In this document: in pieces, positions 19,261 through 53,970 of the stretch
Position numbering within the stretch: position 1 is the first letter of the stretch
Layout: each line of letters starts with the position of its first letter
Source: Cenococcum geophilum
Taxonomy: Eukaryota
DNA length: 64,000 nucleotides
Reading direction: 5' to 3'
Assembly: GCA_050273025.1 (NCBI GenBank)
Contig: CP158635.1
Span: 11,284,001-11,348,000, forward strand
Position numbers and translations under genes: made by a program
The notes under the pieces: model-generated
The model's database searches: none
Told to the model about the DNA's origin: nothing
Seen by the model: the letters and a program-made list of their open reading frames with translations, nothing else

Positions 19261-19440
19261 TATTAGCTATACTATCAGGAATAAGGCAAGCAGTCGTTAC
19301 ATAACGCCGCGGCACTAGCATAGCGAGGAGTCTTAAGCTCCTTACCCTTCCTTATTCTAATTAAATAAGATTTATCACCTAACATCACTATAACCCTACT
19401 TAAGTAGTCGTTATTAGTAAGTTACCCTATATAACCAACA
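19261..19440 (+). mobile_element. Degenerate solo LTR, family B (related to 27383 and 53069)
   Basis: Shares the core gccgcggcactagc..gcgaggag.cttaagctcctt and the 3' end aaccaaca. The 5' end and TSD are not resolved. Confidence 0.6.
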
Positions 19441-26460: not shown

Positions 26461-27382
26461 TAAGCAAATAAAGGACGAAATTAAACCCTATAAGTATCTA
26501 AAATTCCTATTTAACTAGCTAGTATATTATTTAGCTTTAAATAAAATAATTAATACTACATTAGTATAAATAGTCCTAGGTAAGCAAGCAGTATAAAGAA
26601 AATCCATTAATTTTCTTATTACCTTTGGAAGAGGTACACTATCCCTTATAACGGTAGCGTCCTACTACTAAGTAATCATGCACTAATAAAATAATAATTA
26701 AAACATCTTAACTTAATCTAATTAGTTTAATAATTATAGGACATATTTTACAGTTATAAGGGATAACGCATCTACGTGCCAGGCCATCCCTTTATGCGGC
26801 AGAAGTCACTTTTTATATTAGGCGCTTTTAGCGCTTTTACTTAGGTTAGCATGCTATAGGCACCCTAGCTAGCGCGATTTTATTAGCAATCTCCACCAAA
26901 ACACGTCAATATTGCGATGCCGACAAAATATTATAGAAGGCCACCACTAAAAACACTAATATGTATTTAAGGAAGTTGAGCAAGAAGTCGTAATATATAA
27001 CGCTATATTTATAAATTTCTACCCTTCTTCTATTAACTAGCTACTAATTATATAGGAAAATCCTCTATTAAAGTCCACTAAATTACTACTAGGCAGTATA
27101 AGGACAACATTTTACTAATAATTTAAGGATTAAATAGACGGCGATAATATTAAAGCTTTTTAATTAACTACACTAAATATTATATAGGCTTTCTAGCCAC
27201 TTCGCTGCTGTTTACTAAGCGTTAATAAGGCGCCGGCACCCCTGCCACTAAGTAACCGCACTAACTAGAGGCTTTAATACTAAGCTATATATAATATAGA
27301 GCCTTTAGATAGGCTTATGGGCATATATATACAAAAAGTGCAAGAAACGGTTGCCATATAAAGGGATAGGTTAAATAGTACA

Positions 27383-27582
27383 TGTTAGGAATAAAGGTAA
27401 ATAGTTACTATATAAGGCATATTGCCGTCACGTATAGCAAATTACCATCACGTGCCGCCGCGGCACTAGCGTAGTGAGGAACCTTAAGTTCCTTACCCCT
27501 TTCTTAAAATTATCAAAAAGAAGAACAATTATTATACTATCTACAAACCGTAGCTACGTAATATCCCCTTATATAACCAACA
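27383..27582 (+). mobile_element. Solo LTR, 200 bp, family B
   Basis: Termini TGTTAGG...ACCAACA with TSD gtaca/gtacg. Homologous to 53069-53268. Confidence 0.8.
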
Positions 27583-28332
27583 GTACGTAAAAAAACATAA
27601 TATTTAGATTCTAAAGTATATCACTATACTTATAGAGAGTTTATACAAACATTTAAGCGCTATTCACTTCTTTAACCTTCCTTTTTAATGCTCGTATTAG
27701 CCTTCATTTAGTAACAAATCCTCCCGTAAATCCTCCCCAGTATTCTCTATTCCGGCTTCACCTCTATCTAGTCTATTATCTAGGGGATCTCTAGAAAGGT
27801 ATAATGGCGTAGAGGCTAAGTTATATAAAGGTGAAGATAAAGCTGCGGTGGGCGTTTCCGGTATATCTTTGGCCCAGTAAAAGGCCCAGTGGCCTATTTA
27901 AGAAATGCGAACCTATATATAACAACAACAGACTTGCCTTAGTATTGTGTTTTAGATAAGGATAATAACATATATATTTAGATCTTTAAGAGGATAAAGA
28001 TTTAAGTAAGTAGGATAATTATAATTATCCTAATATAGAAAGATAAGAACATGCTTACTAAAACTCCTACTAAAGAAATTTAATATTTTAAGGAGAATGA
28101 CTCCGCGTAATTCTAATAAAGGGTTTATATAATAGGGGGGTAAGACTAATAAAACTAATAAGACCGGTAACACATTACTTTTCGGCTAAGGGTAAAAAAA
28201 TAATATTTGACTATTATGACCTAGCCTTATACTAGAACCTTTTAGTATAATACGCTAATCCTTATACCCTAGTAGAGAATAATTTGAAATAATCTACGGA
28301 ATATTAACTCTATTAGCGGAACAATACTTAAA

Positions 28333-31152: not shown

Positions 31153-31379
31153 TATTACGGCACTAGTAGAACTTGGCAGAACTTCACACTAGCAAGTTGT
31201 CACAGATTGCCGCATATTGCGGTCACGTAACGCGAAGATATTATAAAACATTAAGCGGCGCTACTCTTCTTCTCCTTTCCTTTCCCTAGCTTTAAATTCT
31301 TATTTATAGATAATCCAATTATATAGGCTTACGCGTCCCTCTTACTATACTCGTGCCTTAATTAACTAAGTCACTAACA
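31153..31379 (+). mobile_element. RIPed solo LTR, family A
   Basis: Termini tattacggcact...attaactaagtcactaaca (= tgttacggcact...attgactgagtcgctgaca). Flanks cctat/cccgt. Homologous to 53744-53970. Confidence 0.8.
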
Positions 31380-39337: not shown

Positions 39338-39574
39338 TATGTTATATTTATAGAATATTATCTAAAGTAGTTAAGCCGCTACCTTGCTTTAATATTTACC
39401 AGCTAATATAGGGTAAAGTATCTATAAGTAGATAAGATATAATACGGGATTGGCGTAAACCGGTACCAAAAGTTAAGGACTTAGCTAATAAAGGAGTAAG
39501 CCTTAGCAAAAAGGCAATAAAATAGTTTAGTTAGAGTATTTTACTCCCCAGCACAAGGCAATAGCGAACTACTA

Positions 39575-40056
39575 TAGTAATGTGCACAACTAGCTTCTAC
39601 CCCCCCTCTAAAAAAAATATTTTTTCGCTTTAGTACGCGGGCTCGCTAGCAATCGTAGCAAATGCCTATGCTTAGCTATAAGAACTTTACTTCTAGTAAA
39701 CTTCGCGATTAGCCTTCCTCTACAGTATTATAATCTTTGTTAAATATTGTGAGGTTTTTACCAGTATAATATTACTAAATTTTATCGGCAATTGTAGGAA
39801 CAGCTTTATATTCACGTTTTGGCGGCATAGTAGGGGGGCACGCAGTTAAAGGGAAGGGGAGGGCGCGTACGTCCTCAGTTTGGTTCTCCTGGCCAACTAA
39901 GGCAATTCTCTAGGGCAACTAAAAAGGTCCTTGCGTGCAGGCACATGCGTTCACTACAATTACTATATATAGTTAGTGGCGATTTAGCGAACCCGCGTAC
40001 CGAAGCGAAATAATTTTTTTTTTCAGAGGGGTAGAAGCTAGTTATGCATATTACTA
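39575..40056. mobile_element. Non-autonomous Tc1/mariner-type TIR element (MITE), 482 bp
   Basis: About 80-bp terminal inverted repeats (tagtaatgtgcacaactagcttctacccc...gtacgcggg / cccgcgtac...ggggtagaagctagttatgcatattacta) flanked by TA on both sides. The terminus is compatible with RIPed CAGT. Confidence 0.85.
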
Positions 40057-40955
40057 TACTCTAAGTATACGTTATAGTATAATATAGGATTAAGGATATT
40101 TGCTATATAAGCGCATAGTATCTAAGCCATAATGCAATATTATTATCTCTTTAGCTACTTCCGTTAAAGTCTTACACAATAGCTCTTTTGCTACTATAGT
40201 ACTCATTACTTTACTTAGAGACAGCCCTTAAAAATCCCCCAAATGCCCTTATTCCGTATACTGCTTAGCTTACTTCTTAGCCTAGTAAGCCTTTTACCTT
40301 AACTTCTTCTATTTTCACCTCTAATTATATATTTACTAAAAGCACCTAGCTTACGTATAAGCACTCTATAGCTTAGGCTGTATTAGGTTTTAGCTCCATA
40401 TTTATAGCAGTACAGTTACTTTCTTTTTAATTGGAATTAAAAACACTATCTATTATATTTAAACCCTCTACTTCCTTAAACACCTTATTATACTCTAGGT
40501 CGCTTACTTCTAACTTAAACACAAAGTTTAACGGACTTTCGCCTGCGTTTATAGCAATATTTAGGTAGTTAGGGCTAATAAAATTCATCAGAACTATGTC
40601 GCCTTAGCTAGGCCAAGTATTACATTCCTTTTAGCGTCTTCGATATAGTAGAACCGCGGCTTATTAGGGGATAAATAGTAGAGGCAAAGGCGAGGGGGTA
40701 GTCTTTAGCTTAACAGGTTAAAGACCAGGGGAGCGACAAAGCGTATTATTAGAGTCGTAGTATAAGCTAGACATAGAAGGACACAGAAACGTAAAATGTA
40801 GTCGGTTAGGAGGTATAAGTAAAAGAGGGGATCTTAGGAGTATTCGCTTATTAAAATCGGCTTATTATTCACTTAGGTGTATAAGGGGATAACATCAATG
40901 CGTTAGACGCCCCCCCTATTAGTATAGGTTAAGAAATAAGCAAGTCTAAAGTGAC

Positions 40956-41157
40956 TGTTACGGCACTGACGCGCGTAACCTGGATAGGGCCTAGTCAGGG
41001 GGGTTCGCTTACGTCTTGGCTCCATGTATATAGACGTGTCCTTTCCACGACCTTCTTCTTCTCCTCATCTTGATATCCGGGTCAATAGACTACCAATTGT
41101 ACAGGCTTGCATACGTTCTACGGCGCTCATGCCTCGATTGACTGAGTCGCTGTGACA
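40956..41157 (+). repeat. 5' LTR
   Basis: tgttacggcactg...gagtcgctgtgaca, with a TATATA box at 41027-41032. Confidence 0.97.
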
Positions 41158-41159
41158 TT

Positions 41160-41169
41160 ATATCAAGAT
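41160..41169 (+). promoter_or_regulatory. Putative self-priming primer-binding site
   Basis: ATATCAAGAT lies 2 nt after the 5' LTR and is the exact reverse complement of LTR-internal ATCTTGATAT (41067-41076). There is no TGG-starting tRNA PBS. Confidence 0.7.
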
Positions 41170-42142
41170 CCCTCAACCGATCGCAGGCTGTTGTATCCCA
41201 GGTCAAAGAAGCCCTGTGGCCTAGGGTAGTTGATGGGTGACGGAGCCCTATATACTAGCAGGCAAAGGAAGGAAGGAGAGCCTAACTCCTATAACAAAGA
41301 AGGCAGGAGATGCATACTCTGAGACAAAGCAGGAATCATTGTTATTGTTATTGAAGCCCTACAATCGTAGGAATTATCGAAGATCTACAATCGTAGGCAC
41401 CCTTACTGTGGTCCTGTGGTGGCTGGGTATGGAATCCCTACACTTATAGGTACCCTCCCTTATGTTCTCTTCTTTTTTTCTTTTCTCTCTACCAAACGGC
41501 CGCCTATGCTATGGGGAAGCACGTGCCGAGACGGTAACCTCTTTCCGACCGTACGAACTCGACGACCGACCGTACGTCTCCTTCGGACGCTTGCACCGTA
41601 CTGCTACCTAAATAGTCCTTTTTGATGGATACTGAGCTATGTATACTGTGAGGAACGAAATCGGTTGATACTGAGACTAGTGCTATGCACTGGCTGCGAA
41701 GAACGACCCCGACGGATACTGAGTTGTACGAGCTGTGAGGAACGAAATCACCAGGACTATCAACGCTGGCATCACTCTGCTATTGACTACCGATCGTGCC
41801 GATATGCATACGATCCATATACTCGACAACAGTAGCGCCAATACGCCTGCTACTACGACCTGACTACAACTGTGCCGATACGCCTACAGTCTTCTGACCG
41901 TACGATCGTGCCGTTACGCCTGCGATCCACGACTTCCGCTTGCATCGTACTGCTACAACAAACGACTGTACTGCCCTGCCACAGTCGACGAGACAATGAT
42001 CGTGCCTCTACGCCTACGATTACTCGACCAATCGATAGCCCGAGCTCTACGTTCGACCTGCTATCACAAGACAACCGATAGACGAGCTCTGCGCTCGACC
42101 ACTATCGTTACCGCCGCTAGTACCGTACTACTACCCGAACAC

Positions 42143-42331
42143 AGCTGCTCCTACCTGCAGCTAAACCTTAATTCGACCACTACTGCTCCTGCCTGCAGTA
42201 CCACAATTGACTTCTGCTGCTACGCCCGCAGCACTACGATCGACCCTCGCTGCTCTGCCTGCAGCATTCCAACTGACACTTGCTGCTCTGCCTGCAGCAT
42301 CTCATTGACTACTGCTGCCCCACCTGCAGCA
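42143..42331 (+). repeat. Six ~33-bp units, each containing a stem-loop (TGCTGC-N7/8-GCAGCA type)
   Basis: Stems start at 42143, 42181, 42215, 42249, 42281 and 42313. Confidence 0.85.
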
Positions 42332-42413
42332 AATAACTACAACTGTACAAGAGGTAGAAGACAAGCACCTAAGGATAAAGCTTGAGGGCAAGCTTTTTTG
42401 AAGGGGGGGGTAA

Positions 42414-42615
42414 TGTTACGGCACTGACGCGCGTAACCTGGATAGGGCCTAGTCAGGGGGGTTCGCTTACGTCTTGGCTCCATGTATATAGACGTGTCCT
42501 TTCCACGACCTTCTTCTTCTCCTCATCTTGATATCCGGGTCAATAGACTACCAATTGTACAGGCTTGCATACGTTCTACGGCGCTCATGCCTCGATTGAC
42601 TGAGTCGCTGTGACA
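42414..42615 (+). repeat. 3' LTR
   Basis: Identical by eye to 40956-41157. Confidence 0.97.
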
Positions 42616-43753
42616 GTGACATAGCGGGGCCAGGTTATTTTATTTGCTATACTAGCAGGGGGGGCATCTAACCCATTTATATTACCCCCTTATAAACGTC
42701 CTGTCTCCTTTACAAAGTAAATTATAGCTTTAACCGCGCTAATGTCTAGGAAACGCCACCTCGACAAGGGTGTGGCCGGTATAGGTCGGCTACCTCCCTA
42801 TTTATAGTGGCAATATCTAGTCAAGTTTACTTTAATTACCGTTATATATCGCTTATAACCACACTTATATAACCTAAAAAGTATTCGCCTAGCCCGCTAT
42901 TATTACACAACGCTAGTGTTATAATGACTTAAGCGGTAGGGATTCTCCTTAAGCAGCGGCAATAAGATAAACCTAATATTAAACATTATCGTCTAGGCAC
43001 CTATTTCGCACCTATCTAGGGGTTTATATATATATATATATCAATTAGAAGTCCGTGCGCAGATTTTAGGTAAGGAAAACTTATATAAAGATTAATCTAT
43101 AAAGAAAATAAGGCTATATATACACGGTAGTCCTATAGTAAAGGAACACTATTTCACGTAATAAGAACGATCTCCGTAACTTAAGCATAATAGCAACAAT
43201 ATAATCGTAATTTTTAGGTAGGAGAGGTCTTTAACGTTTATAAATAGCTATAATATAAAGTATATGCAGAACTATAGCAAATATTAATATATATAAAGAG
43301 ATTGAGTTACTAAAAGTTAAAGTACCCCTTATATATCCCGGCTTGGTGTGTCTCGCTTTATAGTAGGGGACGTTAATAAGTACAATATTAGTAAGATTAG
43401 GGGCCGGTCTACCAGGTTTAAGGCAATTTGGTAATATAAATTATAGCTACTAAAGCGGATCCCTATTAGGCCTATACGGACTACGCCTTATATATATATA
43501 GGGAGAAAACTCCGTCTAAGAAAACCCCGTATTCCATCTCTCCGCCATTAAGCCCCACCTATATAGTACCTACAGGTTGCCTATCCTCTATATCCTTACC
43601 TTTAGTCTCTTTAGGGACCGCTACTACCTATAGACGCGCTAGTATTTTAAATTTTTGCTCCACTACTATAATGCTCTTAAGGGGCGCCTGTTACTATCCG
43701 CCCCCTTACCTTCTACCGCTATTCTTCCTAGCTAGAAGGTATGTAAATAAGGG

Positions 43754-51546: not shown

Positions 51547-53068
51547 ATAATAATAATAATGAAGTTTATTCCACCCGGAGGCACTAAGCCTAAAGGGTAC
51601 TAGTATTATATTATATAATTTCACTTCCTTTAATATCGCTATATTCTTATACAAGCCCATATATCTACCTTATTTAGTACTTCCTAGTCTTACTTATACT
51701 TTATTCTACAAGATCTTATAAATAGTTAGTAGCAAGTTGTCTTAGGGTCTATTCCTCCAAGTATTCAGTGTCCTATCTTCGGCGATTAAAGCGAGATCTG
51801 CTAGTAGCACAAGGGTGCGTAGTATAGGTTAGTTAAAGCGTAGAGGAGGGGGGGGAGTTTCTAACTGTGGTGGACGGGTTATTGATTTAATTCTACCTTA
51901 AGTCATCTGGTAGCTATTGCGTATTTTACTATCGCTCGGACCGCGTCCATATTTAATATCTACTATCTAGAGTTAGTTAACGCCTTCCCCCCAAAATAGA
52001 AGGATAAGCTGCCTCTTCTTATATCTATTTACTGCAGCATTTACTCTTAATATAATATCCATTTTATACACCTAAAGAGAAAGTATTTAACTATTTCTCT
52101 TACCTATCCGCAATTATATTAATCTAATTCTGCCGCTCCAATGCGGTGCAGATACCTATTAAGTTATATTATTCCTATCTATAACTAGGCCAACACATTT
52201 ACCTCTTCTCGCTTAAGGGAGTTATATAGCCTACGGGTATATTTACCTAGTAGTACTATGTCCATTTTTCTTAAATACCTTCCTACTCCTTCCGGTAGTG
52301 TTTTCCTACCCCACTATTTTATTCTTGCGGTGTTTATTATTATAGCCTTAGCCTAATATTATTGTCCTCGCGGTAGGCGTCCTTATATAGTAGCTCGCCG
52401 TACTACTACTTTTGCCTTCTTACCTAGTTCAAACTCCCCTTAAGGGACCCATGCAATAAAAAAACAGTTACTTCTTTACCTTAACGTGCGGGCTATATTA
52501 TAGATCTATACAATACTTATTTAGCTAGATTATTGCTTAGGTTAGCTAATCGCCAGTAATACTACCTAATTACTAGTAAATATAGTAATCTATCTCTCCT
52601 GTAGATCTGGTAGTAAGCACCTTATTACTATTAATATTGCCGCCAGTTTAGCTATATATAGGTTCTGTTCTGCTCTTAGTCCTAGTATAATTAAGTATAT
52701 AACAGCTTCCCTATTTAGCGTATTGCTAAGGGTGTTATAGACAACACCTCCCATCCCCACCATGCCTCTCCTCCTGGACGAGCTTGTTGCGATCTATATG
52801 CCTTAGGTGGAGTTAGCGGCTTCAGTTACCCTATCTTTATCTAGGTTAATGCTTATAGGCAGTCGGTCCTCCTATAGTAGTACTACGTAGGGCTAAATGA
52901 CCTCTATCTTATCTATTGGTATATGTTAATGTATATAGGCTATCTTCTACAGTGGGGACATAAACCTCTAGAGCACCTTTATACGGAGCCTTAAGAGCGG
53001 GTTCGTCTTATACAGCGTATTAAGGTCGACCTATAACTTAGTGGCCCTCTCTAAATGCCGCTCGCGTA
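51547..53068 (-). mobile_element. 5'-truncated fungal LINE (Tad-like): RNase H plus C-terminal zinc-finger region and 3' tail
   Basis: De-RIPed minus frame ...GVGRY.RKMD..LPGKHTRRLYDSLKREE.NVLAQL.TG...LN.YLHRIGAAE.DQC.CG..RET.KHFLFRC.KW. The 3' end shows AATAAA followed by (ATT)n at ~51547-51570. Confidence 0.85.
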
Positions 53069-53268
53069 TGTCGGGAATATAGGGAACTGGTCATTATATA
53101 AAGCAAATTGCCATCACATATAGCAAGTTGCCGTCACGTGTCGCCGCGGCACTAGCGTGGCGAGGAGCCTTAAGCTCCTCGCCCTTCCTCATTCCTAAAG
53201 TATATAATAAACAACTATTATACTATCTACAAACCGTAGCTATATAATATTACCTTATAAGACCAATA
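53069..53268 (+). mobile_element. Family B LTR, 200 bp, without a matching TSD
   Basis: Termini tgtcggga...gaccaata, homologous to 27383-27582. The flanks gcgta and gttta do not match. Confidence 0.8.
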
Positions 53269-53354
53269 GTTTATAAGGTAGAATAAGTAGACGCGTAGAA
53301 GATAAAAAGGGCAAAGCATACAGCAATAGCTATCTAATTTTTCCCTAACAGCTC

Positions 53355-53580
53355 TATTACGGCACTGGCAGAAAGCGGTAGCTATAGTAGACGTTATAGT
53401 AGACGTAGGGCTTACGTAACTCTTACGTAACTAGGGGATTATATATAACTCCTCACGTTACTACTTATCCTTTCCTTTCCTTTTCTTCAGCTTTAGATTC
53501 TTGTTTATAGACAATCCAATTATATAGGCTTGCGCGACCCTTTTACCATACTTATAGCTTAATTAACTAAGTTGCTAACA
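53355..53580 (+). mobile_element. RIPed solo LTR, family A, 226 bp
   Basis: Termini tattacggcactgg...aactaagttgctaaca with a perfect TSD AGCTC. Absent from paralogous copy A. Confidence 0.9.
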
Positions 53581-53743: not shown

Positions 53744-53970
53744 TATTAGCGACTTAGTCAATTAAGATATAAGCACGGCAAAAGGGTCGCGCAAGCCTAT
53801 ACGATTGGATTGTCTATAAACGAGAATCTAAAGCTAAAGAAAGGAAAGGAGAAGAAGGGGAGCGCCGCTCGAAGCTATATACAATCTTCGCGTCACGTGA
53901 CCGCAATATACGGCAATCTATAGCAACTTGCCAATATATAGTTCTACTAAGTTCTACTAGTACTATAACA
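53744..53970 (-). mobile_element. RIPed solo LTR, family A, 227 bp
   Basis: Reverse-complement homolog of 31153-31379 with a perfect TSD ATCGA. Confidence 0.9.

Follow-up and report, generated by a model that had tools for sequence, protein, structure and literature searches.

Positions 40956-42615 of the window (the whole 64,000-nt stretch of DNA analysed here) hold a young non-coding LTR element of 1.66 kb (1660 bp), hereafter the mini, which is very probably a non-autonomous LTR retrotransposon that primes reverse transcription as Tf1 does, with the enzymatic steps inferred from Tf1. The element has LTRs, a TSD and a PPT, lacks coding capacity, belongs to a large family, carries a covarying complementarity between its LTR and its primer-binding site (PBS), and has cis-elements in common with a chromodomain Ty3/Gypsy family. 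A sequence-only reading of this DNA had proposed tRNA-independent self-priming, and this is strongly supported by the sequence comparison of related families, between which primer and PBS have changed together.

Anatomy and setting of the element

The features of the mini, from left to right, were assigned as follows.

40951-40955, + strand: left TSD, GTGAC, the same 5-mer as at 42616-42620
40956-41157, + strand: 5' LTR, 202 bp, TG...CA ends, 100% match to the 3' LTR
40956-41066, + strand: putative U3, variable among subfamilies and at about background identity to the sister family
41027-41032, + strand: TATA-like TATATA, from the sequence and its spacing to the primer in the family
41051-41070, + strand: pyrimidine tract ending in the initiator-like TCATCT, whose A is 41067; putative function, from the sequence
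41067-41076, + strand: putative self-primer, presumed transcript nt 1-10, from complementarity and comparison with the sister family
41077-41157, + strand: remaining R-U5, with predicted nested stems within the primer-PBS helix, from the fold and sister-family homology
41158-41159, + strand: spacer TT from LTR end to PBS, common to the sister and two further families
41160-41169, + strand: primer-binding site, complementary to 41067-41076
41173-41183, + strand: leader segment, candidate third duplex with U5 41135-41145, weak in the window copy and strong in some others
41158-42413, + strand: non-coding interior, 1256 bp, largely short degenerate repeat modules, longest frame 173 aa
42377-42413, + strand: 3' motif, T-run and PPT (42400-42410), with little difference from those of the autonomous sister family
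42414-42615, + strand: 3' LTR, 202 bp, TG...CA ends, 100% match to the 5' LTR
42616-42620, + strand: right TSD, GTGAC, the same 5-mer as on the left

Since the two LTRs of the window copy are identical, the mini family has moved recently. The earlier claim that the element is non-autonomous held up: the three forward frames of the interior contained no Pfam domain above the cut-off, and tblastn gave no match on either strand between the interior and the Pol protein P0001, the best database relative of the sister family. We do not take the 173-aa frame at 41864-42385 for a gene, its sole match being MBT with an E-value of 0.17.

The AT-rich repeat DNA of the window bears a RIP signature throughout, with TpA/ApT of 1.4-1.9 and (CpA+TpG)/(ApC+GpT) of 0.44-0.72, from which the host would be a RIP-active filamentous ascomycete. 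The indices of the mini itself were milder (1.31 and 0.90). Modules of its interior (window 41580-42340) recur outside these LTRs at 70-89% identity (L012:6260-6473, L045:4785-5153, L048:8723-9241 and L028:8657-8936), so part of any internal RNA signal may stem from other repeat families. The mini was inserted in the middle of an inverted-repeat, MITE- or hairpin-like host element of ~160 bp, with arms at 40877-40939 and 42635-42697 that are 79% complementary; this host element had one weak match elsewhere (L009:7031-7077). A second MITE-like element has arms at 39573-39648 and 39985-40058 that are 82-87% complementary.

The primer-PBS duplex of the window copy

Two bases (TT) past the point where the 5' LTR ends, ATATCAAGAT at 41160-41169 is reverse-complementary to ATCTTGATAT (41067-41076) without a mismatch. 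All ten pairs are formed, as the earlier reading had described, and the duplex is exactly 10 bp long, with no extension on either flank. TATATA at 41027-41032 ends 34 nt before 41067 (40 nt from start to start), in agreement with the ~35 nt given in that reading; the hexamer is frequent in the AT-rich window (336 on the + strand) and alone is no evidence. When 41060-41200 was folded, the MFE and centroid structures both contained the primer-PBS helix, though the fold of this region was ordinary overall (z -0.73, with 44 of 200 shuffles folding equally well).

That the duplex is a chance inverted repeat is extremely improbable. AT-rich RIPped DNA does yield complements by accident: when 27 LTR/orientation cases were scanned, 5-8 pairs were seen in cases of wrong orientation or of copia type, and 11/12 in one AT-rich repeat. 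Against this, dinucleotide shuffling of the LTR produced a 10-nt complement in only 17 of 20,000 trials, when a match anywhere was accepted with the PBS starting 0-4 nt after the LTR. Position, spacer and pairing are moreover the same across related families with different sequences, and the cross-family covariation described below largely refutes a chance origin.

Canonical priming by a tRNA 3' end is excluded because there is no TGG at the PBS; the first TGG after the 5' LTR lies at 41217, 59 nt downstream of the LTR. Scans of the window with Rfam and ARAGORN gave 0 matches and 0 tRNA genes, and one tRNA gene was found across all metagenome loci examined. We consider it very unlikely that the helix is real but structural, serving packaging, dimerisation or translation control, while a host tRNA or tRNA fragment acts as the primer. 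Half-tRNA priming is described in some Ty1/copia lineages (PMC6317226), yet the sources consulted report it only from copia lineages, whereas the gypsy elements of the Tf1/sushi group are reported to self-prime. A tRNA partner would also fix the PBS, whereas three related families have different PBSs, each of which matches the family's own LTR.

Conservation within the mini family

The family of the mini was collected with a degenerate U5 pattern in metagenome contigs, which gave at least 125 stretches, and 124 loci were analysed. The last 25 LTR bases are fixed by the search pattern, so their conservation is by design. The family is large, with at least 128 distinct LTRs, mostly solo; the 128 listed comprise 83 solo, 18 3', 13 5' and 1 middle LTR, and 13 of unclear status. 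Copies are dispersed, each with its own target site, and in other mini copies the LTRs are spaced 1168-1460 bp apart. Every listed copy with a readable interior has the interior of the mini and none has gag-pol; among the 124 loci listed, the mini's own LTR did not occur in any autonomous element.

The primer 10-mer was exact in 100 of the 128 LTRs listed. The remaining 28 comprised 23 with RIP-type changes only, three with T>C at position 10 (all in locus L018), one deletion and one divergent sequence. The distance between the starts of TATATA and primer was 40 nt (62 LTRs), 35 nt (38) or 34 nt (1) in 101 of the 104 full LTRs listed. Indels and transversions among mini LTRs fall mostly in U3, and in the LTRs listed the conservation of the primer is matched elsewhere in R-U5. 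Fourteen listed copies carry a PBS: six pair perfectly, three include G-U pairs, two are RIPped on both sides and three have one mismatch, so that all ten pairs are kept, with G-U allowed, in 11 of 14.

Some copies combine a G>A change in the primer with a C>T change in the PBS. We rejected these paired changes as covariation, because RIP by itself alters both sides; the mini family hence shows conservation and not covariation. A check of whether the two decamers covary across family members had been suggested; covariation was found between the mini and sister families and not within the mini family, where variation is nearly all of RIP type and so uninformative.

Locus L018:6550-9640 is a tandem of two minis with a common middle LTR; all three LTRs carry the T>C change at primer position 10, and both PBSs retain A. 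On one contig, a mini-type 5' LTR (L098) and 3' LTR (L100) lie ~6.7 kb apart in the same orientation, which may be a nested insertion or a longer, possibly coding form.

Covariation between the mini and a sister family

The window also holds three solo LTRs of a sister family, all assigned by R-U5 homology.

31153-31379, + strand: sister-family solo LTR (candidate helper lineage)
53355-53580, + strand: sister-family solo LTR, TSD AGCTC
53744-53970, - strand: sister-family solo LTR, TSD TCGAT

Their R-U5 is homologous to that of the mini, with a different 10-mer at the place of the primer. The sister PBS was predicted from this 10-mer and then found in eight copies having 5' LTR and PBS, in which the primer reads AGCTTT(G/A)GAT and the PBS AT(C/T)TAAAGCT, with the same TT spacer and at the homologous place. 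These eight sisters were aligned with 8 of 15 minis, chosen for an un-RIPped PBS. The 16 rows of this alignment are not independent and represent a single evolutionary contrast in which three changes occurred. Of its 160 cells 159 pair, and pairs 2, 6 and 8 of the 10 have changed on both sides by transversion between mini and sister. Transversions cannot be made by RIP; these three paired changes between the two families are compensatory. The covariation score of 0.34 was reached by 0 of 500 shuffles, and slid registers of primer against PBS paired at only 17-41%. RNAalifold, given no constraint, predicted the helix from the joint alignment and placed nested R-U5 stems within it.

R-U5 identity between mini and sister was 65-74%, or 79-84% with RIP-type differences forgiven, as against 47-53% in U3; shuffled R-U5 gave a mean of 48% and a maximum of 58%. 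The R-U5 identity of the two families begins at about the primer.

The signature could also be a relic of a self-priming chromovirus ancestor, with the mini primed in trans, perhaps by an RNA packaged along with it, and its own fold unneeded. The autonomous lineage is clearly the source of R-U5 and PPT, and L018 tolerates the mismatch at primer position 10, both of which would suit a relic. We nevertheless regard it as a poor candidate of very low probability: mini and sister differ at three directly seen positions and are still paired, so that the primer of the sister would be a misfit; the PBS has only RIP-type changes in 14 of the 14 copies listed, while the leader a few bases on is variable; and the identical LTRs of the window copy speak for recent movement.

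A third LTR type was seen at L059:7281-7385 (- strand), with the TATA region of the mini up to the equivalent of 41058, then a 10-mer of its own, GTCTTGGAAT, and a sister-like continuation. Run X2 has a loose end at window position 41058. This LTR type may have arisen by recombination close to the border of U3 and R, or may belong to a closer helper. Its predicted PBS was sought in all loci examined and was not found.

The candidate helper lineage

The sister family is a gag-pol Ty3/Gypsy element with LTRs 5.67 kb apart (L053). With stops read as X, its Pol contained RVT_1, RT_RNaseH, Integrase_H2C2 and SH3_Tf2-1 above the cut-off; Chromo fell below the cut-off on RIPped copies (E-values of 0.011 and 0.043). 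P0001, which has a precomputed chromodomain, matched sister copies at 93-97% identity in the main aligned stretches with RIP-type differences forgiven. Its cluster, of which it is the head, numbers 8 and has members of 1351 and 1352 aa; with such full-size members in the cluster, an intact Pol of the sister family exists somewhere, although every sister copy examined was broken by RIP. No relatives of P0001 were found in viral or prokaryote genome contigs.

Mini and sister have in common the LTR start, R-U5 and the 37 nt that precede the 3' LTR, and differ in primer and PBS. The likeliest helper lineage of the mini, as judged from these homologies, is the sister family with its P0001 Pol cluster. 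The link is drawn from the LTR (R-U5 and LTR start) and from the 3' motif and PPT, and not from the PBS, which differs; with a primer that it brings along in cis, the mini can do without the PBS of its helper. The priming signature had been taken to point to the helper lineage. For the type of lineage this is supported, the relatives of the mini being apparently of chromovirus type; the PBS sequence proved to be no guide, as that of the best candidate differs.

In the proposed mechanism, transcription would start at A41067 and nt 1-10 of the RNA would fold onto the PBS at the base of the R-U5 stem. The RNA would be packaged by the Gag of a chromovirus helper, whose RNase H would cut after about nt 10 and whose reverse transcriptase would extend the cut primer into the minus strand. 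The plus strand would be primed at the PPT, and the helper integrase would insert the copy with a 5-bp TSD.

Transcript start and RNA

The element was found in 20 of 24 listed runs (17 studies), in contigs that are unable to show transcript ends; the Logan contigs of X1, X2 and X10 were taken to indicate presence only, and not start, strand or level. About 12% of the raw RNA run X21 was read, and 1311 reads aligned, 1169 of them only partly. They are mostly 90-95% alike, i.e. from a relative, and RNA of the family is present in this related fungus. Presumed-sense depth, with the usual stranded protocol assumed, was 6-9 over U3, 17 at 41053-41103 and 81-105 at 41104-41205. Reads in the opposite orientation had a depth of 20-46 over U3 and the start of R (40951-41103); U3 is therefore mappable in X21, and these reads suggest that LTR copies of the relative are transcribed in antisense or by read-through. 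No start peak lay at 41067 among the peaks listed; the three begin-peaks were all internal, and depth rose over 41092-41129. For a random-primed library, the X21 reads are compatible with a start in R, without mapping it.

We infer a transcription start at A41067 from three signs in the sequence that agree with it, namely the constant TATA spacing, the INR-like TCATCT centred on A41067 and the boundary of mini-sister homology. The TCATCT hexamer is described as INR-like in Zam LTRs (PMC3601003).

Structure beyond the duplex

Tf1 is described as requiring three duplexes (PMC10085805). Stems 5' of the PBS and a central duplex were predicted in both the mini and sister families by RNAalifold. For the leader-U5 duplex, the number of equally good shuffles out of 300 was 1 in L031, 4 in L048, 10 in L107 and 24 in L040, compared with 99 in the window copy. 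Overall the duplex was good (at most 24/300 shuffles) in 4 of 15 minis, poor in 10 others, and good in 0 of 7 RIPped sisters. The leader duplex and the nested stem compete for the same U5 bases. Reads of X21 carry a fully complementary leader variant, with changes at 41175-41179.

Relation to known systems

In Tf1, the first 11 bases are reported to pair with the PBS and RNase H to cut between bases 11 and 12 (PMC7175516). Chromoviruses of the Tf1/sushi group include Maggy, Skippy, Boty, Cft-1, Grasshopper, Afut1, Tj1, Tosmo and Tcn1 (PMC6934838, PMC10085805, PMC4600332, PMC7175516); a further source is PMC2864245. Like these elements, the mini has a PBS that adjoins the 5' LTR and complements the presumed RNA 5' end, no PBS of the canonical tRNA 3'-end type, further predicted LTR stems and a T-rich run before the PPT, and its closest autonomous relatives are chromodomain Ty3/Gypsy elements. 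It differs in being without gag or pol and in a duplex of 10 bp where Tf1 has 11. The mini appears to work like, and to derive from, the Tf1/sushi group without being an autonomous member of it.

With TRIM and LARD elements the mini shares short direct terminal repeats (100-250 bp in TRIMs), the position of the PBS, the PPT, the TSD, the non-coding interior, the many solo LTRs and the occurrence of a tandem copy with a common middle LTR (L018). A strict TRIM is described as under 1 kb with a tRNA-complementary PBS (PMC6934838); the mini, in contrast, is 1660 bp long and its PBS matches its own LTR and not a tRNA 3' end. Fungal GalEa Ty1/copia elements resemble the mini in being fungal LTR elements with no PBS of the canonical tRNA type. 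They are reported to carry a Conserved Hairpin Site, a palindromic 9-mer with a downstream partner and no LTR complement (PMC5445492), whereas the mini has no hairpin site and pairs with its own LTR.

Self-priming is not new: Tf1 is an established case, and many chromoviruses of fungi, vertebrates and mosses have been proposed to use it. The addition made here is modest: evidence from compensatory changes for self-priming in filamentous-fungal elements, and a non-autonomous example of a known self-priming chromovirus lineage. We found no published non-autonomous self-priming element in the literature searched, which covered few subscription journals and is weak evidence of absence. The mini and its candidate helper, with their different primers, form a natural pair for asking whether the primer-generating cut works in trans, regardless of sequence. 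Pipelines that demand a tRNA match would miss, or leave unclassified, LTR elements whose PBS matches their own LTR.

A possible extension, slightly less likely than not, is that a class of self-priming minis exists with private primer-PBS pairs, served in trans by sequence-blind helpers. If so, and if the sister is the helper, its RNase H would cut a foreign primer duplex by shape and not by sequence, and primer-PBS pairs would drift freely as family labels. Such drift is perhaps free because, in line with the general course of reverse transcription, each cycle would have the plus strand copy the PBS anew from a primer that is retained.

Other families with paired or hairpin sites

In an autonomous family 4 (L066, L001), AGCTTAGTAT pairs with ATACTAAGCT at 10/10 positions, and the 3' motif and TT spacer are the same as those of the mini; its R-U5 is not alignable to that of the mini (53%, inside the shuffled range). 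L079 and L060 showed 8/9 pairs behind a 2-nt spacer. By length alone these matches are not beyond the background of the 27-case scan, so that they were rejected as evidence and kept as leads only. No matches to two LTR/PBS patterns (0) were obtained in viral contigs.

L060:6113-7685 (- strand) is an unrelated small LTR element with an LTR spacing of 1329 bp, a longest stop-free frame of 105 aa and no match to the mini or P0001. Its post-LTR 9-mer, behind a CT spacer, pairs 8/9 with the LTR segment that follows a pyrimidine tract, which makes it a second candidate self-priming mini. On the extension described above, this element suggests a recurring, undescribed class of self-priming minis in RIP-active ascomycetes.

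LTRs in L012, L023, L055 and L069 precede CTGATCAGT or CTAATTAGT, the start of the Conserved Hairpin Site reported for fungal GalEa copia elements. Judged by eye, the window repeats at 19281-19357, 27382-27584 and 53068-53270 are probably also of the L012-LTR type.
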